Positions 10,070 through 58,840 are shown, counted from the first letter of the stretch. The stretch: DNA of 64,000 nucleotides from Escherichia coli (GCF_046105845.1 NZ_CP151004.1); one strand, 5' to 3'. Notes: generated from the letters alone by a model not told the origin. A program made the numbers and translations.

Positions 10070-11386
10070 TCAGTTAGTTGCCGTTTGAGAACGGAAACGG
10101 GCAAAGATAAAGATGACTGCGAAGCAGAGTGCCGGGATCAGTTCGGCAGTGGGGATGTTGCCCGCTGCGTCACTGACAAACCCCATGACCGGAGTGACAA
10201 TACCGCCGCCAATAATGGTCATAACGATGAAGGACGAACCGTATTTGGTGTCCTGGCCGAGATTTTTAATGCCCAGCGAGAAGATTGTTGGGTACTGAAT
10301 CGACATAAAGGCACTGCATAAAGTCAGGGCTATTAAGCCCACATGACCGCCAGCGAAGGCTGAGATCAGGCACAGTGCCATAGCGATTAATGCGTAGGCG
10401 GCCAGGACTTTGTGTGGTGCAAAGCGACTGATGAGCCAGGTACCGGTGAAACGACCAATAAAGAAGCACACCATGGTTCCGGTTAAATAGTTAGCGGCAA
10501 AGCCTGCAGTCATACCTGGAATTTCTTCTACAGCGTAGCGAATCAAATAGCTCCAGCAGGCCGTTTGTGCGCCGACATAGCAGAATTGCGCTAATACCGC
10601 CCAGCGCCAGTGACGAATACGCGCCAGACGAGAAAGCGATGCGGAGAACGATCCTTGTTTGGCGTCACTGTGATTATCACTCTGCAATGCCGGGAATTTC
10701 GTCAGCATGATCAGCAGGGCGACCAGTAACACGATAGCCACGATGATCATATAAGGTGTCTGTACCGATAATACCAGGCTGTGTTTATACGCACTCAATT
10801 GCTCTGGAGACATTTTATCGAGAACGTCTTGCGATTGATGTGGCACGTTAGACAAAATAAGACTTTGCCCAAAGACAACCGCGATAATTGCGCCAAATGA
10901 GTTAAATGTTTGCGCAAGATTTAAGCGGAAGTGACCACTGCTTTCCGGCCCTAATACCGTAACAAAAGGGTTTGCGGCAGTTTCCAGACAACCTAATCCA
11001 GCTGCAATAATAAATAGGCCAACTAAAAATAAGGTGTAGTTCATTATTTCTGCAGCGGGCCAGAATAATGCAGCGCCCAAGGCATATAAAAATAATCCGG
11101 TAATAATCCCTGCTTTATAACTGAGTTTTTTCATCAATATCCCAGCAGGGATTGGGATAATGAAATAACCAAAGTAAAAGGCCGATTGGATCAGGCCAGC
11201 CTGGAAATTTGTCAGCGTAAAAGCCTGCTGGAATTGAGGTAATAAAATGTCGTTAAGGTTATTGGCTACCGCCCAAAGAAAAAACAGTGAGCACAGCAGC
11301 GCGAATGGAATAATGTAACTTCTGCTTTGCCCTGCATCTTTATCTACCGCACGGTAACTCTGCGTTTGTATTGATGTGTTTCCCAT
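10070..11386 (-). CDS. fucP: L-fucose:H+ symporter FucP (MFS)
   Basis: 438 aa, 12-TM MFS profile. Confidence 0.9.
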   Translation of the reverse strand: MGNTSIQTQSYRAVDKDAGQSRSYIIPFALLCSLFFLWAVANNLNDILLPQFQQAFTLTNFQAGLIQSAFYFGYFIIPIPAGILMKKLSYKAGIITGLFLYALGAALFWPAAEIMNYTLFLVGLFIIAAGLGCLETAANPFVTVLGPESSGHFRLNLAQTFNSFGAIIAVVFGQSLILSNVPHQSQDVLDKMSPEQLSAYKHSLVLSVQTPYMIIVAIVLLVALLIMLTKFPALQSDNHSDAKQGSFSASLSRLARIRHWRWAVLAQFCYVGAQTACWSYLIRYAVEEIPGMTAGFAANYLTGTMVCFFIGRFTGTWLISRFAPHKVLAAYALIAMALCLISAFAGGHVGLIALTLCSAFMSIQYPTIFSLGIKNLGQDTKYGSSFIVMTIIGGGIVTPVMGFVSDAAGNIPTAELIPALCFAVIFIFARFRSQTATN

Positions 11387-19472: not shown

Positions 19473-20321
19473 TTATTGCCGAACCAGTCTTGTGGTCGAT
19501 GGGACAAAATCGCTATTACTGCGCCACGGGTTAATGTCCAGACCGCCACGACGGGTATAACGTGCGTAAACGCTCAATTTCTCTGGCTGGCAGAAGCGTA
19601 ACAGGTCATTAAAGATGCGTTCCACGCACTGTTCGTGGAACTCGTTGTGATGACGGAAAGAAACCAGGTAACGCAGCAGTTTTTCTCTGTCAATTTGGCG
19701 TCCACGATACTGAATTTGGATCGATCCCCAATCTGGTTGATGGGTGATCAGGCAATTTGATTTCAGCAGGTGGCTGACGAGCGTCTCTTCTACTACTTTT
19801 TCGCCACTGGTGGCATTCTCCAGATAGTCAGTAGTGAATTCATAGTTATCGATAGTGATATCCTGGTCATCAATGCAAGTGCCATTGAAATGACCTATCG
19901 GTTGGCCTTCCAGATCATCAAGACGATATAACGCCACGCTAACCTTACCCTGAGCGCAAGTGCTTAAGTCGCGCTCCAGCGTCTGGCGCACCTCATCCCA
20001 GTTATTAAAACGCGTCTGGTTAAAACTGTTGAGATAGAGCTTAAAACTCTTCGACTCAATCAGATTTGCGCTGGTGTAATCAAGTGCAACATGACCGACG
20101 GCGACCTGCGGCAAACCTTTCGCATTCAGCCAGGAAAGTTCATACAGCGTCCAGATATCCGTACCGTGAAAAGGCAGGTTATCCGCTTTCAGACCCAGCG
20201 GATCGCGATTCAGACTACGTGGAACGCCTTGCAGTAGGCTGGCGTCATAGGTATCCCGGTAATCGGTTGATTTTCCAAGAGTCAGGCCCGCAAGTGCCTG
20301 ATGGTTTGCATAAGAAGACAT
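19473..20321 (-). CDS. queF: NADPH-dependent 7-cyano-7-deazaguanine reductase QueF
   Basis: 282 aa, two-domain T-fold QueF. Confidence 0.9.
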
Positions 20322-20388
20322 GTTTCACCGTCATAAACCAGATAAACTAAACGACAAGTGTATCTGGTTTAAGTGAAGAGAGAAATTA

Positions 20389-20934
20389 GTGGACGATTTG
20401 ACCGCACAAGCCCTGAAAGATTTTACTGCACGCTACTGCGATGCGTGGAATGAAGAGCATAAAAGCTGGCCGTTGAGTGAGGAACTGTACGGCGTTCCTT
20501 CACCGTGCATTATTTCAACCACCGAAGACGCCGTATACTGGCAACCCCAGCCGTTTACCGGGGAACAAAATGTAAACGCGGTTGAACGCGCTTTTGATAT
20601 TGTGATACAACCCACAATTCATACCTTTTATACGACTCAGTTTGCCGGGGATATGCACGCGCAGTTTGGCGATATTAAACTGACATTGCTGCAAACCTGG
20701 AGTGAAGACGACTTCCGTCGGGTGCAGGAAAATCTGATTGGTCATCTGGTGACTCAGAAAAGGCTAAAACTGCCGCCCACGCTATTTATCGCGACGCTGG
20801 AAGAAGAGTTAGAGGTGATCTCGGTGTGTAATCTCTCCGGTGAAGTGTGCAAAGAGACGCTGGGAACACGTAAACGGACGCATTTAGCCTCAAATCTTGC
20901 GGAATTCCTTAATCAACTTAAGCCTCTTCTGTAA
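20389..20934 (+). CDS. syd: SecY-interacting protein Syd
   Basis: 181 aa, [23 protein letters not shown]. Confidence 0.85.
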
Positions 20935-20953
20935 TCCAAATACCCCATCTGGT

Positions 20954-20971
20954 TGTGAGAGATCTCTTACA
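20954..20971. promoter_or_regulatory. UvrY (BarA/UvrY response regulator) binding palindrome upstream of csrB
   Basis: Perfect 18-bp inverted repeat tgtgagagatctcttaca, about 175 bp upstream of the csrB 5' end. Confidence 0.7.
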
Positions 20972-21144
20972 GACTCTGTAGGAGATCGCCAGGAAATAAG
21001 CGAATACTTAAAAAGATAAGAATCGTTATTTTCATTTAAAATCAATATATTGCTTGTCAATTCTTAACTTTCATATGAAATTTTCCTTAAGGCATTGTCT
21101 GTAAGCGCCTTGTAAGACTTCGCGAAAAAGACGATTCTATCTTC

Positions 21145-21510
21145 GTCGACAGGGAGTCAGACAACGAAGTGAACATCAGGATGATGACACTTCTGAAGGA
21201 CACACCAGGATGGTGTTTCAGGGAAAGGCTTCTGGATGAAGCGAAGAGGATGACGCAGGACGCGTTAAAGGACACCTCCAGGATGGAGAATGAGAACCGG
21301 TCAGGATGATTCGGTGGGTCAGGAAGGCCAGGGACACTTCAGGATGAAGTATCACATCGGGGTGGTGTGAGCAGGAAGCAATAGTTCAGGATGAACGATT
21401 GGCCGCAAGGCCAGAGGAAAAGTTGTCAAGGATGAGCAGGGAGCAACAAAAGTAGCTGGAATGCTGCGAAACGAACCGGGAGCACTGTGAATACAGTGCT
21501 CCCTTTTTTT
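21145..21510 (+). ncRNA. csrB: CsrB, CsrA-sequestering small RNA
   Basis: Starts GTCGACAGGGAGTCAGACAACGAAGTGAACATCAGGATGATGACAC; many CAGGATG/AGGA motifs in predicted loops; ends with a terminator. Confidence 0.9.
21478..21510 (+). terminator. rho-independent terminator of csrB
   Basis: gggagcactgtgaatacagtgctccc hairpin followed by ttttttt. Confidence 0.8.
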
Positions 21511-21555
21511 ATTCCTGCTATCCTTCGCGGCAGTTTTTCTTATTGAGGTTGCTTT

Positions 21556-21885
21556 ATGACCACTCATGACCGCGTTCGTCTCCAGTTGCAGGCGCTTGAA
21601 GCGTTACTGCGTGAACATCAGCACTGGCGAAACGATGAACCCCAGCCGCATCAATTTAACAGTACCCAACCGTTCTTTATGGACACTATGGAACCACTGG
21701 AGTGGTTGCAGTGGGTGCTGATCCCGCGAATGCACGATTTGTTAGATAACAACCAGCCATTACCGGGCGCTTTTGCCGTTGCACCCTATTATGAAATGGC
21801 GCTGGCGACGGACTACCCGCAACGCGCGCTTATTCTGGCTGAGCTGGAAAAACTGGATGCTCTTTTTGCGGATGATGCGAGCTAA
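21556..21885 (+). CDS. yqcC: DUF446 family protein YqcC
   Basis: 109 aa ORF; stop overlaps truC start. Confidence 0.85.
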   Translation: MTTHDRVRLQLQALEALLREHQHWRNDEPQPHQFNSTQPFFMDTMEPLEWLQWVLIPRMHDLLDNNQPLPGAFAVAPYYEMALATDYPQRALILAELEKLDALFADDAS

Positions 21886-22667
21886 TGCTGGAAATACTCT
21901 ATCAGGATGAATGGCTGGTTGCGGTAAATAAACCCTCCGGCTGGCTGGTTCACCGCAGCTGGCTGGATCGCGACGAGAAAGTAGTGGTCATGCAAACCGT
22001 GCGTGACCAGATAGGCCAGCATGTGTTTACTGCTCATCGTCTGGACCGACCCACTTCTGGTGTGTTGTTGATGGGATTATCCAGCGAGGCCGGACGGCTG
22101 CTGGCACAACAGTTTGAACAGCACCAAATCCAGAAACGTTACCATGCGATTGTGCGCGGCTGGTTGATGGAAGAAGCAGTTCTGGATTATCCACTGGTGG
22201 AAGAACTGGACAAAATCGCTGATAAATTTGCCCGCGAAGATAAAGGCCCACAGCCAGCAGTGACGCATTATCGCGGTCTGGCGACCGTAGAAATGCCGGT
22301 AGCGACCGGACGTTACCCGACCACGCGCTACGGCCTGGTGGAACTGGAGCCGAAAACCGGACGTAAGCACCAGCTCCGTCGCCATCTTGCCCATTTGCGC
22401 CACCCGATTATTGGCGACAGCAAACATGGTGATTTACGCCAGAATCGCAGCGGTGCTGAACATTTTGGCCTTCAGCGGTTAATGCTGCATGCCAGTCAGT
22501 TGTCATTGACGCATCCTTTTACTGGCGAGCCGCTGACTATTCACGCGGGCCTGGACGACACCTGGATGCAGGCGTTATCACAATTTGGCTGGCGGGGTCT
22601 GCTTCCTGAAAATGAAAGGGTTGAGTTCAGTGCGCCATCGGGTCAGGATGGAGAGATAAGTTCCTAA
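21885..22667 (+). CDS. truC: tRNA pseudouridine(65) synthase TruC
   Basis: 260 aa; RluA-family catalytic motif [12 protein letters not shown]. Confidence 0.9.
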
Positions 22668-22684
22668 TCCAGGGAGAAAACGGT

Positions 22685-23134
22685 ATGGCGGAAATTGGTA
22701 TTTTTGTCGGCACTATGTACGGAAATTCGCTGTTAGTGGCGGAAGAAGCGGAAGCAATTCTGACCGCGCAGGGCCACAAAGCAACGGTATTTGAAGATCC
22801 TGAATTAAGCGACTGGCTGCCCTATCAGGATAAGTATGTTCTGGTGGTTACGTCCACGACCGGGCAGGGCGACCTTCCTGATAGCATTGTGCCGCTCTTT
22901 CAGGGAATCAAAGATACCCTGGGCTTCCAGCCGAATCTGCGTTATGGCGTGATTGCGCTCGGCGACAGTAGTTATGTGAATTTCTGCAATGGCGGCAAAC
23001 AGTTCGATGCATTGTTGCAGGAACAGAGCGCTCAGCGGGTTGGCGAAATGCTGTTGATTGACGCCAGTGAGAACCCGGAACCGGAAACGGAATCAAATCC
23101 GTGGGTAGAACATTGGGGTACGCTGTTGTCCTGA
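22685..23134 (+). CDS. yqcA: flavodoxin-like protein YqcA
   Basis: 149 aa; flavodoxin FMN-binding signature ([13 protein letters not shown]). Confidence 0.85.
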
Positions 23135-23568
23135 TACGTTCAGCAAGCGGTAAATGCCGTTTTAGCGGTGCTGAATCGAATCTTTTCAGGCAAATGCCAG
23201 TAAAAACTGCTTCATAGCGCGGATTTTTACTGGCGTTTGCCTGGAGTCAAGCGATCCATTTCATACTCTTCTTTATTTCTTCGTTTTAACCCTTCCTTTC
23301 TTGTTCTTGTTTTCATTTCCGTGAAGTGGATTCCACCGTCCAGGGCTAATGCCAAAATCGGGCCTCATTGAACGCATTAATGTTGTGTTGTTGCACGGTG
23401 AGCCGCTATGGCGCGCTTTTTATACTGCTATTGCCAGATATAAACACGCGCCGTATTCGGCGAACGACCTATAAAAACGGCAAAAAACACCCTACGTCAC
23501 CTCTGATTTCCTGGCGATGTCGCAGTCCAGAGTGAGCGTGGCTAACGCGAATTTTCAGGAGTGCAACA

Positions 23569-24921
23569 ATGAGTTCTTTAAGTCAGGCTGCGAGCAGTGT
23601 GGAAAAACGCACAAATGCTCGTTACTGGATAGTGGTGATGTTGTTTATCGTCACATCCTTCAACTACGGCGACCGCGCTACGCTCTCTATCGCCGGTTCG
23701 GAAATGGCCAAAGATATCGGCCTTGATCCTGTGGGAATGGGCTATGTGTTCTCTGCTTTCTCATGGGCTTATGTTATCGGGCAGATCCCTGGTGGCTGGT
23801 TGCTGGATCGTTTTGGTTCAAAACGCGTCTACTTCTGGTCGATCTTTATCTGGTCGATGTTTACCTTGCTGCAAGGCTTCGTCGATATCTTTAGTGGATT
23901 CGGCATTATCGTTGCCCTGTTTACGCTGCGCTTCCTGGTCGGGCTTGCTGAAGCGCCATCTTTCCCCGGCAACAGTCGCATTGTTGCGGCCTGGTTTCCG
24001 GCGCAGGAAAGGGGAACGGCGGTGTCGATTTTTAACTCCGCTCAATACTTCGCAACGGTGATCTTCGCGCCGATTATGGGCTGGCTGACGCATGAAGTGG
24101 GCTGGTCACACGTCTTTTTCTTTATGGGCGGTCTGGGCATTGTCATCAGCTTTATCTGGTTGAAAGTCATCCACGAGCCAAATCAACATCCGGGTGTAAA
24201 TCAGAAAGAGCTGGAGTACATCGCTGCGGGTGGCGCGCTGATCAATATGGATCAGCAAAACACCAAAGTTAAAGTACCGTTCAGCGTGAAGTGGGGGCAG
24301 ATCAAACAGCTGCTCGGGTCACGGATGATGATCGGCGTTTATATCGGTCAGTACTGTATCAACGCCCTGACTTACTTTTTCATTACCTGGTTTCCGGTTT
24401 ATCTGGTGCAGGCGCGTGGGATGTCGATTCTGAAAGCGGGCTTTGTGGCTTCCGTTCCGGCGGTTTGCGGTTTTATCGGCGGTGTGCTGGGTGGGATTAT
24501 TTCCGACTGGCTGATGCGCCGCACGGGATCGCTGAACATTGCGCGTAAAACACCGATCGTAATGGGCATGTTGCTGTCGATGGTGATGGTGTTCTGCAAC
24601 TACGTCAACGTTGAGTGGATGATCATCGGCTTTATGGCGCTGGCCTTCTTCGGTAAGGGCATCGGGGCGCTGGGTTGGGCAGTAATGGCAGATACCGCGC
24701 CAAAAGAGATCAGCGGTCTTTCCGGTGGCCTGTTCAACATGTTCGGTAACATTTCTGGCATCGTCACGCCAATCGCAATTGGTTATATCGTTGGCACGAC
24801 TGGCTCCTTTAATGGGGCGCTGATTTATGTTGGTGTTCATGCCTTAATCGCGGTACTGAGCTACCTGGTGCTGGTGGGCGATATCAAGCGTATCGAGCTG
24901 AAACCTGTCGCGGGGCAATAA
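23569..24921 (+). CDS. gudP: D-glucarate/galactarate permease GudP (MFS, anion:cation symporter)
   Basis: 450 aa MFS transporter heading the gudPXD operon. Confidence 0.9.
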
Positions 24922-24922
24922 G

Positions 24923-26263
24923 ATGACGACACAATCCAGTCCTGTTATTACTGATATGAAAGTCATTCCGGTCGCCGGGCACGATAGCATGTTGCTTAAT
25001 ATTGGTGGTGCACATAACGCATATTTCACCCGCAATATTGTGGTACTCACCGATAACGCCGGGCATACCGGCATTGGTGAAGCGCCAGGCGGAGAGGTGA
25101 TTTATCAGACGCTTGCCGATGCTATTCCGATGGTTCTGGGCCAGGAAGTTGCGCGCCTGAATAAAGTGGTCCAGCAGGTGCATAAAGGTAATCAGGCCGC
25201 CGATTTTGATACCTTCGGTAAAGGCGCCTGGACTTTTGAATTGCGCGTTAATGCCGTGGCGGCGCTGGAAGCCGCCTTGCTTGACCTGCTAGGTAAGGCG
25301 CTGAATGTTCCGGTCTGCGAACTGTTAGGGCCAGGCAAGCAACGCGATGCTATTACCGTCCTCGGTTATCTGTTTTATATCGGTGATCGGACCAAAACCG
25401 ATCTTCCTTATCTGGAAAATACGCCGGGCAACCATGAGTGGTATCAATTGCGGCATCAGAAAGCGATGAACAGCGACGCCGTTGTGCGTCTGGCGGAAGC
25501 TTCACAGGATCGCTATGGCTTTAAAGATTTCAAACTTAAGGGCGGAGTGTTACCTGGCGAGCAAGAAATCGACACTGTTCGTGCATTGAAGAAACGCTTC
25601 CCGGATGCGCGGATTACCGTTGATCCCAACGGAGCATGGCTGCTTGATGAAGCTATTTCTCTGTGCAAAGGGCTGAATGATGTTCTCACCTATGCCGAAG
25701 ATCCATGTGGCGCAGAACAGGGTTTCTCCGGACGTGAAGTGATGGCGGAGTTTCGACGGGCGACCGGCTTGCCCGTCGCGACTAACATGATCGCCACCAA
25801 CTGGCGCGAAATGGGCCATGCGGTGATGCTCAATGCGGTAGATATTCCACTTGCCGATCCGCACTTCTGGACGCTTTCCGGTGCAGTCCGCGTGGCGCAA
25901 CTTTGCGACGACTGGGGGCTGACCTGGGGCTGCCATTCCAATAACCACTTTGATATCTCTCTGGCGATGTTTACCCATGTGGGTGCGGCGGCACCGGGTA
26001 ATCCTACCGCTATCGATACCCACTGGATTTGGCAGGAGGGCGATTGTCGCCTGACCAAAAATCCGCTGGAGATTAAAAACGGAAAAATTGCCGTTCCTGA
26101 TGCGCCCGGTCTGGGCGTGGAACTGGACTGGGAGCAGGTACAAAAGGCGCATGAGGCCTATAAACGTCTGCCTGGCGGTGCGCGTAACGACGCGGGCCCG
26201 ATGCAGTACCTGCTCCCCGGCTGGACCTTTGACCGTAAACGTCCCGTTTTCGGCCGTCATTGA
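24923..26263 (+). CDS. gudX: glucarate dehydratase-related protein GudX (enolase superfamily)
   Basis: 446 aa; paralogous to downstream gudD (shared blocks [41 protein letters not shown]). Confidence 0.9.
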
Positions 26264-26283
26264 TTTTGAAAAAGGACATAAAG

Positions 26284-27624
26284 ATGAGTTCTCAATTTTC
26301 GACGCCTGTTGTTACTGAAATGCAGGTCATCCCGGTGGCGGGCCATGACAGTATGCTGATGAATCTGAGTGGTGCACACGCACCGTTCTTCACGCGTAAT
26401 ATTGTGATTATCAAAGATAATTCTGGTCACACCGGCGTAGGGGAAATTCCCGGCGGCGAGAAAATCCGTAAAACGCTGGAAGATGCGATTCCGCTAGTGG
26501 TGGGTAAAACGCTGGGTGAATACAAAAACGTTCTGACGCTGGTGCGTAATACATTTGCCGATCGTGATGCCGGCGGGCGCGGTTTGCAGACATTTGATTT
26601 GCGGACCACTATTCATGTGGTTACCGGTATAGAAGCGGCAATGCTGGATCTGCTGGGGCAGCATCTGGGGGTTAACGTGGCATCGCTGCTGGGCGATGGT
26701 CAACAGCGTAGCGAAGTCGAAATGCTCGGTTATCTGTTCTTCGTCGGTAATCGCAAAGCCACACCGCTGCCGTATCAAAGTCAGCCGGATGATAAATGTG
26801 ACTGGTATCGCCTGCGTCATGAAGAAGCGATGACGCCGGATGCGGTGGTGCGCCTGGCGGAAGCGGCGTATGAAAAATATGGCTTCAACGATTTCAAACT
26901 GAAGGGCGGTGTACTGGCCGGGGAAGAAGAAGCAGAATCTATTGTGGCACTGGCGCAACGCTTCCCACAGGCGCGTATTACCCTCGATCCTAACGGTGCC
27001 TGGTCGCTGAACGAAGCGATTAAAATTGGTAAATACCTGAAAGGTTCGCTGGCTTATGCAGAAGATCCGTGTGGTGCGGAGCAAGGTTTCTCCGGGCGTG
27101 AAGTGATGGCAGAGTTCCGTCGCGCAACTGGCCTGCCGACCGCAACCAATATGATCGCCACCGACTGGCGGCAGATGGGCCATACGCTCTCCCTGCAATC
27201 CGTTGATATCCCGCTGGCGGATCCGCATTTCTGGACGATGCAAGGTTCGGTACGTGTGGCGCAAATGTGTCATGAATTTGGCCTGACCTGGGGTTCACAC
27301 TCTAACAACCACTTCGATATTTCCCTGGCGATGTTTACCCATGTAGCCGCTGCTGCACCGGGTAAAATTACTGCTATTGATACGCACTGGATCTGGCAGG
27401 AAGGCAATCAGCGTCTGACCAAAGAACCGTTTGAGATCAAAGGCGGGCTGGTACAGGTGCCGCAAAAACCAGGATTGGGCGTAGAAATCGATATGGATCA
27501 GGTGATGAAAGCCCACGAGCTGTATCAGAAACATGGGCTTGGTGCGCGTGACGATGCGATGGGAATGCAGTACCTGATTCCTGGCTGGACGTTTGATAAC
27601 AAGCGCCCGTGCATGGTGCGTTAA
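26284..27624 (+). CDS. gudD: D-glucarate dehydratase GudD (enolase superfamily)
   Basis: ORF 26260 trimmed to [20 protein letters not shown] start; enolase-superfamily metal-binding residues. Confidence 0.9.
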
Positions 27625-27689
27625 GACAGAAAACCAAAACCGGCTTCATAAGAAGTCGGTTTGAGATTACTGACGAAGTGGTTTACGGG

Positions 27690-27830
27690 GCCGGTTTTCC
27701 CCCTCGCCCTTTCAGGGAGAGGGGCGGGGTGAGGGTAATCATTCGCACTTGCGTTGGCCTGTTCCCCTCACCCTAACCCTCTCCCCGGAGGGGCGAGGGG
27801 ACTGTCTGTGCTGCTCCCAGCATTGGCATT
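27690..27830. repeat. GC-rich inverted-repeat element between convergent gudD and barA
   Basis: Two copies of a C/G-tract module in inverted orientation: ccccctcgccctttcagggagaggggcggggtgaggg ... cccctcaccctaaccctctccccggaggggcgagggga. Confidence 0.55.
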
Positions 27831-27864
27831 GGACGGAACCTATTTTGACTCGACAAGACGTCCA

Positions 27865-30621
27865 TTACCCGAGAATTTTGCTGGCTTCGCGCGCGACATT
27901 ATCCATCTCGTCCAACAGTTCCAGCAGCTCCGGCTCCAAATCTTCTTCTTTAGTACCGCTACGTAGCTGTTGTTCGATCAGCTGGCAGAGATTCTTCATA
28001 CGCGGCACACCGCTATAGCCGCAACTGCCATGCAGTTTATGAATCAAATCAACCAGGCCTTCCGGGTTTTCTCCAACCAGCTGTTCCTCAACTTTGTTGC
28101 GAACTTCAGGCAGGAAATCGAGTAACATTTGCAGCATATCGCGCGCTAAATCGGTTTTTCCTGCTGCCTGGCGTAGTGCCAGTTGCCAGTCGAGGGTCGC
28201 ATTCGGGTTCACCACAATTTCGTTGACTTCGGGCGTCACGACGCGAGAGGAAATACCGCTGCCAGGTTTGTAGCGCAACAACAAATTATGCAATCGCTCT
28301 TCTTCAATCGGTTTCGCCAGATAATCGCTCATCCCTGCGCCAAGCAGCTTCTCTTTTTGCCCGGCCATTGCATGCGCCGTTACCGCGATAACTGGCGTTT
28401 GTTGCTGATGGGGGAGCTGGTGGATGAGTTCGCAGGCCCGAATGCCGTCCATGTCCGGCATTTGAATATCCATTAAGATCAAATCGAACGGCATCTGTTT
28501 CGCCCGTTCAACCGCCTGATGCCCGCTATCGCAAAGTTCCACATGTTGCACCATATCTTCCAGCAATGCGCCGATAAGTTTCAGGTTAGCGGGGTTGTCA
28601 TCAACCGCCATGACTGTCATTGCCAGCTTACTTTCATCGGTTACAGGCAAAAGCGTGTTTTGTTTGTGATGACAAAATTCCGTCAGGGCAGGTAACAGGC
28701 GCGTAGGTGTTAATGGTTTCAGCAGACACGCGCCGATACCATCTTGCTTAAGTTTTTCAGCATTGACTTGTGCATGGCAAGGAAGTGCCAGCATCAGAAA
28801 ATCGGTCATCGATACCGCTTTCGCTAATCGCTCATGTTGCATTGTTAGCGGCTCGCGGAAGGTCACCGCAATGCCTAATAACATCATGTCGTAATGCGCG
28901 GGAGGCAGCGCGGAGAACGTTGGGCTATAAACCACTTCCAGCGGCGTTTCACTTAAAATATCCAGCGTGCATTGCGCTGCTGCGGAGTTTGGTTCGACAT
29001 AGGCCAGGCGCTTGCCGGCTAGGCACTGGGTGGATGGCCCTTCGATAATAATGTTCGGGTTCAGATCGAGATTAATGTGGAACCAGAAAGTTGAACCGCG
29101 ATTCGGCTGGCTATGGAACGAAATATCGCCGCCCATTTCATTAACCAGTTTTTGTGTAATCACCAGCCCCAGCCCGGTGCCACCATGACGGCGGGAAATA
29201 CTGGCATCAGCCTGTCGGAAGGCCTGGAATAAGCGCGATTGATCGCGTTCAGGAATACCAATGCCGGTATCCCGAATCTGCACTTCAATCTGCACTTTAG
29301 TATTACTCAGCGCACGTTTTTCTACCAGAATATCAATGTTGCCATTCTCGGTGAATTTAATTGCATTCCCCACCAGGTTAGTGATGATTTGCTGTAATCG
29401 CAGTGGGTCGCCAATTACGTTATCGGGCACGTCGCTCTTAATATTGAGCGTCAGTTCCAGCCCTTTATCGTGAGAAGAATGTGCCAGCAGGGTAACGACT
29501 TCATCCAGCGTGCTGCGTAGTGGGAATGGAATACTTTCCAGAATCAGCTTACCTGCTTCCAGTTTCGAGAAGTCGAGAACATCATTAATAATTGCCAGCA
29601 AATTATTTGCCGAACGTTCAATCGTATTCAGGTGATCGCGCTGCGTTGGTGTTAATTCTGTTTTCAGCGTCAGGCGGGTAAAGCCAATAACACCATTCAG
29701 TGGTGTACGCAGCTCGTGTGACATATTTGCCAGAAACTCGGATTTAATACGCGCCGCTTCCTGGGCGCGCTTTTTCGCCAGATCCAACTCAACGTTCTGA
29801 ATTTCCATCTGCTCCAGCGTTTCACGCAGATCGGACGTCGCCTGGTCGATATTGTGCTGCATCTCTTCGTGATAAGCAGCCAGCGACATTGCCATCGAGT
29901 TGATACCGTTTTTCAGCATATCCAGCTCGCCGAGCATAAATCCTTCCACCCGGCTGTCGAGTTGCCCGCGACGGATGCGGTCGACGGTATTCACCATATT
30001 GCGAATCGGACCGGTTACATCGCGCATTAAGCGCCAGCCAAAAATAAGCGCAATACCGATACAAAACAGCATCATCACGCTGGAAATAAAGATCTCTTTA
30101 TATTGCTGCAAGCGAACCGATTTAAGATCCAGCTCAAGCGCAATATATCCCAACATATTTTGACTATTTTTGGCATCGCTACTGGGCGATTCGTCGGGGG
30201 AGTAACTCTCAGAAATAATCGGCGTGCGGAGGATCATAATATCGCCGTCACGAGTGACAGTGAGTTGGCGAGGAAACGGCACGTTGCTGCCGAGCTGCAT
30301 TGATGAGGGATCAAGATGAAAATTGGAGGTGACAAAGAGTCGGTTATTTTCATCATAAACCGAAATCGCGCGAACAATATCGGAATGGCGACGATGCAGT
30401 ACGCTTATTAACTGACCGATAGATTCGCGATTTTGCAGGCTCATGCCATATTCAGTAGAAACTGCAAGCGGCTCAATAATGCTGGCTCCGGCATCTTCCA
30501 GTTGACGCTGCAAGTCGTTATAGCGATGCACAACGAAAAAGATACTCAGCAATAAACCAATAAGGACGGTCGGTGCCAGGATCAGAATCATCATGCGTGC
30601 GCGCAGGCTGTAGTTGGTCAT
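27865..30621 (-). CDS. barA: hybrid sensor histidine kinase BarA (tripartite HK-REC-HPt)
   Basis: 918 aa; H-box SHELRTPLN, receiver [15 protein letters not shown]-terminal HPt. Confidence 0.9.
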
Positions 30622-30677
30622 GGAGTTCCGTTATGGGACAATTAAGGTCACACTGTTAAATTGAGAAAGTCTCGCCA

Positions 30678-31979
30678 ATGGCGCAATTCTACTCTGCAAA
30701 ACGACGCACGACGACGCGTCAGATCATAACTGTTTCAGTCAACGACCTCGACTCTTTTGGTCAGGGCGTGGCACGACATAACGGCAAAGCGTTATTTATT
30801 CCTGGATTATTGCCACAGGAAAACGCGGAAGTTACTGTTACTGAAGATAAAAAACAATACGCCCGCGCTAAAGTCGTACGCCGGTTAAGCGATAGCCCGG
30901 AACGCGAAACGCCACGCTGCCCTCATTTTGGCGTATGCGGTGGCTGTCAGCAACAACACGCCAGCGAGGATTTACAGCAGCGAAGCAAAAGTGCGGCACT
31001 CGCCCGATTAATGAAACACGAAGTCTCTGAAGTGATCGCCGATGTTCCCTGGGGCTATCGCCGTCGCGCGCGTTTAAGTTTGAACTACTTACCGAAAACA
31101 CAGCAACTTCAGATGGGGTTTCGCAAAGCGGGCTCCAGTGACATTGTCGACGTTAAACAATGTCCCATTTTAGTGCCCCAACTTGAAGCATTGCTGCCCA
31201 AAGTCAGGGCATGCCTGGGCAGCTTACAAGCTATGCGCCATCTTGGTCATGTTGAACTGGTACAGGCAACCAGCGGCACGCTGATGATTTTGCGCCATAC
31301 CGCACCGCTAAGTTCGGCTGATCGCGAAAAACTGGAACGCTTTTCGCATTCTGAAGGCCTGGATCTGTATCTCGCCCCCGATAGTGAGATACTCGAAACC
31401 GTCTCTGGTGAGATGCCCTGGTATGACTCAAACGGGTTGCGCTTAACTTTTAGCCCGCGCGATTTTATTCAGGTCAATGCGGGTGTGAACCAAAAAATGG
31501 TAGCGCGTGCGTTGGAATGGCTGGATGTGCAACCTGAAGATCGCGTACTGGATCTGTTCTGCGGTATGGGCAACTTTACACTGCCATTGGCGACACAAGC
31601 TGCCAGTGTGGTCGGTGTAGAAGGTGTTCCGGCGCTGGTGGAAAAAGGCCAGCAGAATGCGCGTCTTAATGGCTTACAGAATGTGACGTTTTATCACGAA
31701 AATCTTGAAGAAGATGTCACAAAGCAGCCGTGGGCGAAAAACGGCTTCGATAAAGTGTTGCTGGACCCGGCGCGAGCAGGTGCCGCAGGTGTTATGCAGC
31801 AAATTATAAAACTGGAACCTATTCGTATAGTTTATGTATCCTGTAACCCTGCAACGCTGGCTCGGGATAGCGAAGCGTTATTAAAAGCAGGATATACCAT
31901 TGCGCGACTGGCGATGCTGGATATGTTCCCACACACGGGACATCTGGAATCGATGGTACTTTTCTCGCGCGTTAAATAG
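30678..31979 (+). CDS. rlmD: 23S rRNA (uracil1939-C5)-methyltransferase RlmD (RumA)
   Basis: 433 aa; TRAM domain, Fe-S cysteines ([14 protein letters not shown]), SAM-MTase. Confidence 0.9.
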
Positions 31980-41272: not shown

Positions 41273-42643
41273 GAGTTCCCCGCGCCAGCGGGGATAAACC
41301 GTTGTCCTGCTGAACCAAGTAAGCCACTGACAAGAGTTCCCCGCGCCAGCGGGGATAAACCGCATTATATCCTGTGCGTCGTTCATTTATTTACGAGTTC
41401 CCCGCGCCAGCGGGGATAAACCGGCCGCCGCATGGCAAAACAAACATCGGGGTACGAGTTCCCCGCGCCAGCGGGGATAAACCGGAACGGCGGCTATACG
41501 GATTCGACAGGTCAGCGAGTTCCCCGCGCCAGCGGGGATAAACCGGATTGAATGCAGATGGTTCAATGCTCGCATTCGAGTTCCCCGCGCCAGCGGGGAT
41601 AAACCGCCACGCGTGCTTTGAGTGGATGGTGTCGCTTGGAGTTCCCCGCGCCAGCGGGGATAAACCGATACATTATTAAGCGGGCAATTTTTCCAGTTTG
41701 AGTTCCCCGCGCCAGCGGGGATAAACCGAACGGCACGGCCTGCCGCCACGTCCCGCAGCTGAGTTCCCCGCGCCAGCGGGGATAAACCGGGGCCGTGTTT
41801 TCTAACGGATTCGCACATTGCGAGTTCCCCGCGCCAGCGGGGATAAACCGCAGCAGTTCAATACTGAAATCAACATGCCGATGAGTTCCCCGCGCCAGCG
41901 GGGATAAACCGCGCGGTGGGGTTTCATTCGCATCAATTCAAGGGAGTTCCCCGCGCCAGCGGGGATAAACCGGCGGTGAGTGAGAAAATCAGGACGGCTG
42001 CGAGGAGTTCCCCGCGCCAGCGGGGATAAACCGCGCCAAATATGCTGGTGGACTTCTACGCCGATGAGTTCCCCGCGCCAGCGGGGATAAACCGCTATCG
42101 ACGGTCAAGAAAATCCACCGGAAGAAGAGTTCCCCGCGCCAGCGGGGATAAACCGGCAGCAATATATTTGACATAATAGATAACCCGGAGTTCCCCGCGC
42201 CAGCGGGGATAAACCGACGCCAGGGGAGATATAACGCGCCTGTTATGGGAGTTCCCCGCGCCAGCGGGGATAAACCGGTCTTAACTAAAAGATGACCATT
42301 CAGTCGCAGGAGTTCCCCGCGCCAGCGGGGATAAACCGCGGCCCATAATATTAATATAATCCACATGAGGGAGTTCCCCGCGCCAGCGGGGATAAACCGC
42401 GCCGGAAATCATCGTTCTGTAATTGTCTAGCGAGTTCCCCGCGCCAGCGGGGATAAACCGCCCTGTTTGTTATTCCCATTATACGTATAAGAGAGTTCCC
42501 CGCGCCAGCGGGGATAAACCGCTTCTGGCTGGAGGTGGAGAAACGGAGGCAATGAGTTCCCCGCGTTAGCGGGGATAAACCGGATTTAGAGAGCCAGACG
42601 TTGGTCAGTTATTCGAGTTCCCCGCGTCAGCGGGGATAACCAT
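41273..42643 (+). CRISPR. Type I-E CRISPR array, 23 repeats / 22 spacers
   Basis: 29-bp repeat GAGTTCCCCGCGCCAGCGGGGATAAACCG recurs at exactly 61-bp period from 41273 to 42615; 32-bp unique spacers; repeat 22 has C>T (GCGTTAGCGGGG); terminal repeat degenerate (GCGTCAGCGGGGATAACCA). Confidence 0.97.
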
Positions 42644-42688: not shown

Positions 42689-44167
42689 TTACGCATTCGA
42701 CCAGCTCTGGATCGAATCTTCATTCCCCAATTCCCCATGCATCACTTCATACGATTTTTTCAGGATCACATCAGTGTGTTTGGTTAGGTCTTTGAAAATG
42801 CCTTTATTCATCGCGTCGTAGCGTTTGGCGTTGCTCTCAACAGGCATAAAGATATCTTTCACGCGAACCATTTTGTCGACAGCCGTTGCGTAATCCGGGT
42901 ATAGCCCCAGACCTACCGCCGTATTAATCGCTGCCCCCAGGCTTGCACAACCATTAATGGCGTTACGGCGTGCCGGAAGGTTGAACACGTCGGCAAAAAT
43001 CTGCATAAACAGATCGCTGTTCGAACCGCCGCCAGTAATGATCACATGCTTTGCAAAGTGATTCATTTCATTACACATATTGTCGTAATTGTTCTTCAGC
43101 GTCAGCGCCACGCTTTCCAGTATCGAACGATATATCCATGCGTAATCCATGCTGGAATCAAAGCCGATCATAATCCCGCGTTTGTACGGTTCCCACGGAT
43201 TGGTCAGCCAGTCCAGCACCGTCATCAGACCATTACAGCCAGGCGGCACACAAGACGCTTTTTTGTTGAGCAAATCTTCCGGTGAAAGATCCTGTGCTTT
43301 GGCATCCTGAATTAACGACTCGCCTAACATGTCGCGTAGCCAGCTCACCGTCCACATGCCTTTGCGGATACCGTAACCTTCATACAGCAAGGTTTGTGGA
43401 ATAGAAGACATAATCGGCCAGTACGCTACCGGATCTTTCGGCAGTGCTTTGCCGTTCATCATCAACGCGATGTAAGTGCCAAGAGAAATTACCGCAGTTT
43501 CATCATCCAGTAACCCGGCTCCCAGTGCTTCTACCGGTTTATCACTGGTGGTACAAACAACCGGCAGCCCAGCCGGGAAATGTGTAGCCAGCGCGGCTTG
43601 AGGAGTGATATGCCCAAGAACAGTGCCCGGCATTTGCACATCAAACAGCATATGACGGGGGATATTAAACTTCTCCATGACTGCGGCATCTTCACTCCAT
43701 GCCCAGGTCTTATAATCCACCGGCCACTGACCAAAATAGTTGGCGATATTGTCTTTAAACTCGCCGGTTAAGCGATGCGTCAGATAACCTGAAAAAGAGG
43801 TGACATATGCCACGTCAGGATTCGTATGTTCGTAAGGGCGTGTAACGCGTGCATCCTGCCAGCTAATCAACGGCGCAGCTGGCGTGCCATCGGCTTTCAA
43901 TAACGCACGGCAGCAACGGATGGATCCCAGACCAATACCGACAATATCTTCTTTATTTCCGGCAAACTGACTCATCAAATCGTGACCGGCAAAACATAAT
44001 GATGCCCATAAATCGTCGTCAGGATGTTCTGCGGTATCGGCATCTGGCGTGTGCATCGGCTGTAATAAGCCTTTGCCTTCGCAAACCACGTTACCTTCCA
44101 GATCGTACATCACCACTTTTGTGCTCTGACTTCCGCCATCAATCCCTATGATGTATTTTTTCGACAT
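42689..44167 (-). CDS. ygcE: FGGY-family carbohydrate kinase YgcE (substrate unknown)
   Basis: 492 aa MSKKYIIGIDGGSQSTKVVMYD; FGGY N- and C-terminal domains. Confidence 0.85.
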   Translation of the reverse strand: MSKKYIIGIDGGSQSTKVVMYDLEGNVVCEGKGLLQPMHTPDADTAEHPDDDLWASLCFAGHDLMSQFAGNKEDIVGIGLGSIRCCRALLKADGTPAAPLISWQDARVTRPYEHTNPDVAYVTSFSGYLTHRLTGEFKDNIANYFGQWPVDYKTWAWSEDAAVMEKFNIPRHMLFDVQMPGTVLGHITPQAALATHFPAGLPVVCTTSDKPVEALGAGLLDDETAVISLGTYIALMMNGKALPKDPVAYWPIMSSIPQTLLYEGYGIRKGMWTVSWLRDMLGESLIQDAKAQDLSPEDLLNKKASCVPPGCNGLMTVLDWLTNPWEPYKRGIMIGFDSSMDYAWIYRSILESVALTLKNNYDNMCNEMNHFAKHVIITGGGSNSDLFMQIFADVFNLPARRNAINGCASLGAAINTAVGLGLYPDYATAVDKMVRVKDIFMPVESNAKRYDAMNKGIFKDLTKHTDVILKKSYEVMHGELGNEDSIQSWSNA

Positions 44168-58482: not shown

Positions 58483-58840
58483 ATATTGCCGGATAAATTA
58501 AACGCCTCTGTCAGAAATGATGGGGGCGTTTTTATTTTGCGAGCAGCATTCCTGATTTTAAACGTGAACGCCGCTGGAAGAATCAACAGGTATATAATGG
58601 TGTCGGGTGCTTGAGGCTGTCTGGCGTTAAGCATTCGCGAGGTTCCAGATGGACAAAAGCCCCAGGCGATATTTCTATCAACCTGAGGCCAGCGTTCGAA
58701 CCCAAACAATTCGAATGTTAGTCTCTTCTTTGCAGGGAGGCAAGACATGTGTATATCACTGTAATTCGATATTTATGAGCAGCATCGAAAAATAGTCCAC
58801 TGATATCATCGATAATACTAAAAAAACAGGGAGGCTATTA

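Follow-up and report, generated by a model that had tools for sequence, protein, structure and literature searches.

Does the closeness of the sensor kinase gene barA to csrB, the small RNA (sRNA) gene activated through the regulator UvrY, mark a regulatory module or simply an inherited order of genes? We addressed this question in a stretch of 64,000 nucleotides (nt) from Escherichia coli (GCF_046105845.1, NZ_CP151004.1), hereafter the window, where an earlier reading made from the sequence alone had placed a BarA sensor, a UvrY box and the CsrB sRNA together within 10 kilobases (kb). All of these elements are present there, far beyond what chance would produce, and we found no evidence that contradicts the identification of csrB, the UvrY repeat or barA. 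The locus is almost certainly the canonical E. coli csrB locus with barA nearby, and the proximity of the two is most likely inherited gene order, not functional cis-coupling. As a discovery this is of little value: CsrB, its promoter and BarA are textbook parts of the Csr global regulatory circuit, the csrB RNA, the promoter that depends on UvrY and integration host factor (IHF), and BarA are already known in full experimental detail, and the window is a near-K-12 copy. The outcomes are instead corrective and descriptive, namely a near-perfect repeat with a conserved asymmetry, a rigid spacing, and a linkage that is not to be taken for a regulatory module.

The RNA and its terminator occupy the following positions, counted from the first letter of the window:

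21145 to 21513, plus strand: csrB sRNA, 369 nt, with 22 GGA motifs (Rfam RF00018; transferred from K-12 b4408 with two single-nucleotide differences)
21478 to 21510, plus strand: csrB intrinsic terminator, with an 11-base-pair (bp) stem (21478-21503), a 4-nt loop and a run of seven T, at -21.1 kcal/mol

The identity of csrB stands on a strong Rfam match (RF00018, 21154-21513 on the plus strand), which scored 382.9 bits against a gathering threshold of 71 (E = 2e-111) and spanned the full model (positions 1-356 of 356). A missing Rfam call was one of the outcomes by which the sequence-only reading could have been refuted, and it did not occur. The sequence-only reading had given the gene as 21145 to 21510; the start was exact, and the end falls 3 nt short of the 21513 obtained from the K-12 alignment. 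Its description of many CAGGATG and AGGA motifs and a strong terminator is matched by the 6 CAGGATG, 14 AGGA and 22 GGA motifs counted in csrB and by the stem and T-run listed above. The GGA background in sliding windows across the 64 kb was 4.8 +/- 2.5 per 369 nt, and csrB was the maximum. In the minimum-energy fold 17 of the 22 GGA motifs were wholly unpaired and nine hairpin loops carried GGA, and the Rfam consensus aligned to the window RNA had 11 GGA-loop hairpins plus the terminator. Orthologs tell the same story, with 21-28 GGA motifs each (median 23) among 57 full-length csrB sequences, and with 68 consensus pairs, 21 of them showing compensatory double changes, in an RNAalifold analysis of 58 distinct orthologs. 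The covariance score, the exposed GGA motifs and the hairpins supported by covariation place this RNA in the CsrB/RsmB family. Binding and sequestration of CsrA by CsrB are established for the K-12 allele, from which the window allele differs by 2 nt.

The surrounding sequence is equally ordinary for the species. Window positions 20900-21560 are 100% identical to E. coli strain N3, with indels separating the two away from the matched stretch, and the window is colinear with K-12 MG1655 around b4408. The csrB region was found in 5425 of 5426 complete E. coli genomes and was covered to less than 80% in 22 of these 5425. In the E. coli RefSeq records examined, annotated by the Prokaryotic Genome Annotation Pipeline (PGAP), only syd and yqcC were listed under the match, and a csrB feature was annotated only in K-12. 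Searches of plasmids and phages for a mobile csrB turned up nothing but mislabelled chromosomes, fragments of megabase scale and very small records without annotation, and thus no mobile CsrB. A permissive Rfam scan of 20300-31000 yielded no RNA besides CsrB and an antisense echo of the csrB terminator. A natural disruption was seen in one other genome, E. coli MARGA_3 (NZ_CM170101.1, 3339-4900), where an IS3-family transposase lies within csrB about 94 nt past +1.

Compared with K-12 MG1655 (csrB, b4408; barA, b2786), the window has the same gene order, the same 369-nt RNA, and an identical repeat and third half-site at -183/-182. Six substitutions were counted in 681 aligned bases, with the UvrY-site region identical and no structural difference seen. 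Two of the six fall in the RNA: 21196 is A against C in K-12, with GGA kept, and 21484 is A against G, which turns a G-U pair of K-12 into an A-U pair, so that every pair of the terminator stem is Watson-Crick (-21.1 kcal/mol, compared with -20.7 in K-12).

Upstream of csrB, the sequence-only reading had described a perfect 18-bp palindrome, about 175 bp away, as the consensus UvrY/SirA site. We assign the following elements to this region:

20954 to 20971, no strand: 18-nt near-perfect inverted repeat TGTGAGAGATCTCTTACA, predicted UvrY~P site, centred at -183/-182 and equal to the footprinted K-12 site
20977 to 20987, plus strand: third half-site TGTAGGAGATC, 5 bp 3' of the repeat, with TGTRRGAGATC kept across nearly all loci
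20923 to 21003, no strand: window equivalent of the UvrY crosslink region, -222 to -142, transferred from Zere et al. (2015; PMC4682653) using +1 = 21145, and identical to K-12

The distance was well estimated, as the repeat ends 174 bp before the csrB +1 (21145). The symmetry was overstated: the repeat is not a perfect palindrome because positions 4 (G) and 15 (T) are mismatched, its reverse complement is TGTAAGAGATCTCTCACA, and 8 of the 9 arm pairs are complementary. This G4/T15 asymmetry is conserved, the perfect form TGTAAGAGATCTCTTACA occurring in only 1 of 63 species. The literature does not define the site by perfect dyad symmetry either. The same 18-nt sequence was described as "nearly perfect", with its centre at -183/-182 in E. 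coli and -182/-181 in Salmonella, in the middle of the region (-222 to -142) crosslinked to UvrY in chromatin immunoprecipitation with exonuclease digestion (ChIP-exo; Zere et al., 2015). Binding of UvrY at the csrB promoter in vivo was barA-dependent by ChIP-PCR, and purified UvrY footprinted the repeat against DNase I (Zere et al., 2015). The authors also noted an extra TGTAGGAGA 5 bp downstream of the repeat, a "partially conserved additional sequence"; in the window it makes up a second inverted repeat, of 13 nt, with the repeat's right arm (20961-20987). The repeat in the window is thus the published ChIP-exo and footprint sequence at the published position, and its identity to the K-12 sequence bound by UvrY makes it the predicted UvrY binding site here. 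The earlier UvrY/SirA assignment was borne out, and "consensus" would be better worded as the footprinted csrB site, since the csrC site is far less symmetric than the csrB site (Zere et al., 2015).

We evaluated conservation in a set of 66 YqcC-anchored loci, one per species with 10-kb flanks, from Escherichia, Salmonella, Citrobacter, Enterobacter, Klebsiella, Raoultella, Kosakonia, Cedecea, Siccibacter, Shimwellia, Buttiauxella, Pluralibacter, Leclercia, Lelliottia, Pantoea and other genera. With nhmmer, csrB was found in 64 of the 66, always between syd and yqcC on contigs that extend to syd, and the other two are without upstream DNA. Upstream sequence was available for 63 species loci. 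The repeat was identical in 53 and had one to four mismatches in nine more; the remaining locus (L050) is on a truncated contig whose upstream DNA is too short for a judgement. The palindrome was therefore retained wherever it could be judged in these relatives that keep csrB, which was the comparison by which the sequence-only reading had proposed to challenge it. The ninth base of the repeat lies at -181 to -185 in all full-length cases, counted from transcription starts that, for the other species, are placed by alignment to the E. coli +1. An exact repeat near -180, conserved in orthologous csrB promoters, is what identifies a UvrY/SirA site, and both features are seen here.

Could the repeat be primarily something else, such as a chance palindrome, the syd terminator or the operator of another regulator? 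Chance would supply 0.03 matches to TGTGAGAGATCTCTTACA with three or fewer mismatches in the window. The start of the repeat, just 20 bp past the syd stop codon, would suit a terminator, but the repeat is not called by the terminator scan because it has no loop and no T-run. The GATC at the dyad means that Dam or SeqA could contact the repeat, and another protein might in this sense use it; against this, the repeat stays identical from genus to genus within a variable flanking spacer, and it was crosslinked in vivo, with barA-dependent binding of UvrY to the csrB promoter, and footprinted by the purified protein. The published footprint refutes a non-UvrY reading in practice (Zere et al., 2015), and we give such a reading next to no chance.

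The GATC tetranucleotides deserve separate mention. Two Dam sites lie 23 bp apart, the first at the repeat dyad (20961-20964) and the second closing the third half-site (20984-20987), each with a conservation of 80-100% across species. About seven species have lost the central GATC from a repeat that is otherwise intact. No position of the repeat is less conserved than position 8, which is the G of this GATC and is replaced by C in four species. No link between Dam methylation and the csrB promoter was found in the literature covered, which did not extend to subscription journals. A role of the GATC sites in the UvrY box is thus weakly supported. It is very improbable that either selection keeps barA and csrB close, through co-inheritance or spatial coupling, or the GATC sites let methylation or the state of replication influence UvrY binding.

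Between the repeat and the RNA, the column profile of the spacer shows conserved islands in variable sequence. These are the repeat, the third half-site and three further elements:

21040 to 21052, plus strand: IHF-like core AATCAATATATTG, fitting WATCAANNNNTTR, at -105 to -93, with the TCA..TT positions 80-100% conserved in 64 sequences
21110 to 21115, plus strand: putative -35-like hexamer TTGTAA, within conserved CTTGTAAGAC (-36 to -27), 70-100% conserved
21133 to 21141, plus strand: putative -10 region GATTCTATC, at -12 to -4, with hexamer GATTCT at -12 to -7, 90-100% conserved

A putative IHF site was previously placed between two regions of UvrY crosslinking, and IHF was required for expression of csrB and not of csrC (Zere et al., 2015). 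The core at 21040-21052 may be an IHF binding site and is a candidate for the one placed by these authors. Four of the differences from K-12, at -99, -96, -92 and -87 (21046-21058, 13 bp), fall in or beside the IHF-like core AATCAAnnnnTTG, with the consensus positions kept. A scan for sigma-70 promoters upstream of csrB found no consensus promoter, so the -35 and -10 elements were assigned from conservation; the missing consensus agrees with a promoter that relies on an activator. Measured from the start of the repeat, the putative -35 lies at a nearly fixed distance, 154-157 bp in 54 species and exactly 155 bp in 37 of them. The hexamer TTGTAA falls inside the second, promoter-proximal UvrY crosslink region (-56 to +25), for which no footprint was seen in vitro (Zere et al., 2015). 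The conserved TGTAAG at -34 to -29 is inseparable from the -35 itself. Another TGTAAG, at -45 to -40, was considered as a promoter-proximal UvrY half-site and rejected, its conservation being only 40-70%. The conserved islands, their spacing and the weak promoter fit the published model of distant activation through an IHF bend.

Applied to the window by way of the identical sequence, the steps shown elsewhere would run as follows. BarA would autophosphorylate and pass the phosphate to UvrY, encoded elsewhere in the genome; UvrY~P would bind the 18-nt near-palindrome centred at -183/-182; and full activation of csrB would need IHF. IHF at the core near -100 may bend the DNA so that the distant activator reaches the weak sigma-70 promoter (TTGTAA, 17 bp, GATTCT). 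The product would be the 369-nt CsrB, with about 22 GGA motifs mostly exposed in hairpin loops or single-stranded linkers, and these motifs would sequester CsrA dimers from their mRNA targets.

The sensor gene lies on the far side of a sugar-acid gene cluster:

27865 to 30621, minus strand: barA, encoding a tripartite hybrid sensor kinase of 918 amino acids, convergent with the gud operon (Pfam; K-12 and N3 annotation)

BarA is intact, and its Pfam domains (sCache_4 31-177, HAMP 198-248, HisKA 293-357, HATPase_c 404-518, Response_reg 670-780, Hpt 828-910) stand in the order expected of the BarA/GacS tripartite hybrid sensor kinases. The protein is 98.0-99.9% identical to BarA of other Escherichia loci, and the gene lies between gudD and rlmD as it does in strain N3 and in K-12, the K-12 gene having the same size, which marks it as the ortholog. 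Its 3' end is 6.35 kb from the 3' end of csrB, with yqcC, truC, yqcA, gudP, gudX and gudD between, in keeping with the distance of about 6 kb across gudPXD given by the sequence-only reading. The gudD-barA intergenic region (27700-27800) contains GC-rich nested inverted repeats, CCCCTCGCCCTTTCAGGGAGAGGGGCGGGGTGAGGG ... CCCTCACCCTAACCCTCTCCCCGGAGGGGCGAGGGG, with 39-nt arms that are 82% complementary; they resemble the boxC-type intergenic elements of enterobacteria. A 10-bp indel separates the window from strain N3 between the end of gudD and barA.

Whether the linkage of barA to csrB means anything depends on how the rest of the neighborhood behaves. The other genes concerned are:

20389 to 20934, plus strand: syd (SecY-interacting protein), the upstream neighbor of csrB (Pfam Syd, E = 5e-73; annotation of the identical strain)
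21556 to 23134, plus strand: yqcC (DUF446), truC (tRNA pseudouridine-65 synthase) and yqcA (flavodoxin)
23569 to 27624, plus strand: gudP-gudX-gudD (glucarate transporter and dehydratases), variable cargo between csrB and barA

Within the comparison set, a convergent barA lies within 1.7-10 kb in 58 of the 64 csrB-bearing loci, and in four of the remaining six the available DNA ends too soon. Nine loci, among them those of E. albertii, Pluralibacter and Cedecea, lack the gud genes, and there barA comes straight after yqcA. One explanation is that the linkage itself is selected, either because sensor and target are co-inherited or because membrane-inserted BarA is spatially coupled to the csrB promoter. 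That barA is found less than 10 kb from csrB and always convergent in 58 of 64 loci from more than 15 genera, with or without the 4-kb gudPXD cluster, would agree with such selection. Conservation is no weaker, however, among the genes on the opposite flank of csrB: 48 of 48 loci keep ppnN-queF-syd upstream of csrB and 46 of 48 keep sdaB-sdaC, so that barA is not special in this respect. The protein that contacts the promoter, UvrY, is encoded elsewhere: a UvrY probe sequence matched only the BarA receiver domain in the window, which does not contain uvrY. The second UvrY target, csrC, also sits at a separate locus, flanked by yihA/yihI (Kulkarni et al., 2006). The same authors reported that syd flanks csrB/rsmB in Yersinia and Pectobacterium too and that the CsrB-type sRNAs of Vibrio, Pseudomonas, Shewanella and Legionella lie between unrelated genes (Kulkarni et al., 2006).

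More distant genomes separate the two genes altogether. Six further loci were obtained from a representative Syd search and contig look-ups, their Syd proteins being 34-58% identical. None of the six has barA within 10 kb. One look-up (L075) gave a contig of just 1 kb. A csrB-like RNA was found downstream of syd in three of the six (L071, L072, L073). In L072, an Rfam-positive csrB (88.5 bits) lies downstream of syd with several genes between, and an exact copy of the 18-nt repeat lies about 210 bp upstream of the Rfam model start. In L073, csrB (10760-11058, 81 bits) is found between syd and yqcC and the repeat has decayed to TGTAAGAAATATCTTTAT. In L071, a GGA-rich csrB-like RNA (10745-11030), below the Rfam threshold and with a degenerate box, comes directly after syd, and the interval from syd to rlmD lacks yqcC, yqcA and barA. 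L071 and L073 belong to more distant, AT-rich genomes with a decayed UvrY repeat (6 mismatches) and no barA in the vicinity; these may be reduced genomes that have lost BarA/UvrY control. Since it is the repeat, and not barA, that accompanies csrB, we read the linkage as block synteny.

The block sdaCB-ppnN-queF-syd-csrB-yqcC-truC-yqcA-(gudPXD)-barA-rlmD is conserved through the Enterobacteriaceae, and the barA-csrB linkage is most likely the synteny of this block, in that family and in one of the two Pantoea loci sampled. The linkage is not special because the upstream neighbors are equally conserved, uvrY and csrC lie elsewhere, the sRNA flanks in other genera are unrelated and the distant loci have no barA nearby. 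A functional sensor-target module would show linkage beyond background synteny across lineages, and we found none. The sequence-only reading had called the linkage a known feature of the region; this holds for the annotated gene order, and these comparisons indicate block synteny rather than coupling. No paper on the linkage was found in our search, with subscription journals outside its coverage. Selection on the linkage itself therefore appears to us a very poor bet.

A few minor limits apply to inherited gene order at a canonical locus as the full account. Incidental synteny is the default explanation, and weak selection for linkage would also accommodate a barA that stays near csrB while gudPXD comes and goes. 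The other limits are the alignment-based transcription starts of the other species and the four substitutions around the IHF-like core. An effect of these substitutions would not be expected, because two fall in N positions of the consensus; the other two lie just beside the core.

Several known systems are close to this locus. In Salmonella enterica, csrB under SirA-BarA has the same 18-nt sequence centred at -182/-181, the extra half-site and the IHF dependence, and the two Salmonella loci in our set (L011, L015) share the order syd-csrB-yqcC...barA. The Salmonella RNA has diverged, with nhmmer scores of 253-259 bits against 351-365 in other Escherichia loci. The GacS/GacA-rsmX/Y/Z system of Pseudomonas and the VarS/VarA-csrB/C/D system of Vibrio are alike in having an orthologous hybrid sensor with a FixJ/NarL-type regulator, GGA-rich sponge RNAs and a conserved 18-bp upstream palindrome, and differ in that their sRNAs lie at other loci and in several redundant copies. 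The consensus of the GacA box is TGTAAG-N6-CTTACA. For the promoter architecture, narG (NarL at -190, IHF at -125, Fnr at -41) was proposed as an analogue, a distant activator of the FixJ/NarL family likewise acting through an IHF bend (Zere et al., 2015). It differs in its regulator and target, and at csrB some further partner would act at the promoter-proximal crosslink site (Zere et al., 2015).

Three further features were seen elsewhere in the window. An array of clustered regularly interspaced short palindromic repeats (CRISPR) at 41455-42522 has 29-nt type I-E-style repeats GAGTTCCCCGCGCCAGCGGGGATAAACCG with a 61-bp period and is the second most GGA-rich place in the window. Spurious open reading frames on its minus strand translate as repeated VYPRWRGEL / FIPAGAGNS / GLSPLARGT. 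The array adjoins a sugar-kinase open reading frame (42689-44167, minus strand), which we take to be ygcE, and is probably the E. coli ygcE-ygcF (CRISPR 2.2/2.3) array. Rfam also identified GcvB at 2720-2925 on the minus strand (199 bits) and the sok antitoxin RNA of a hok/sok-type locus at 58605-58761 on the plus strand (103.7 bits).

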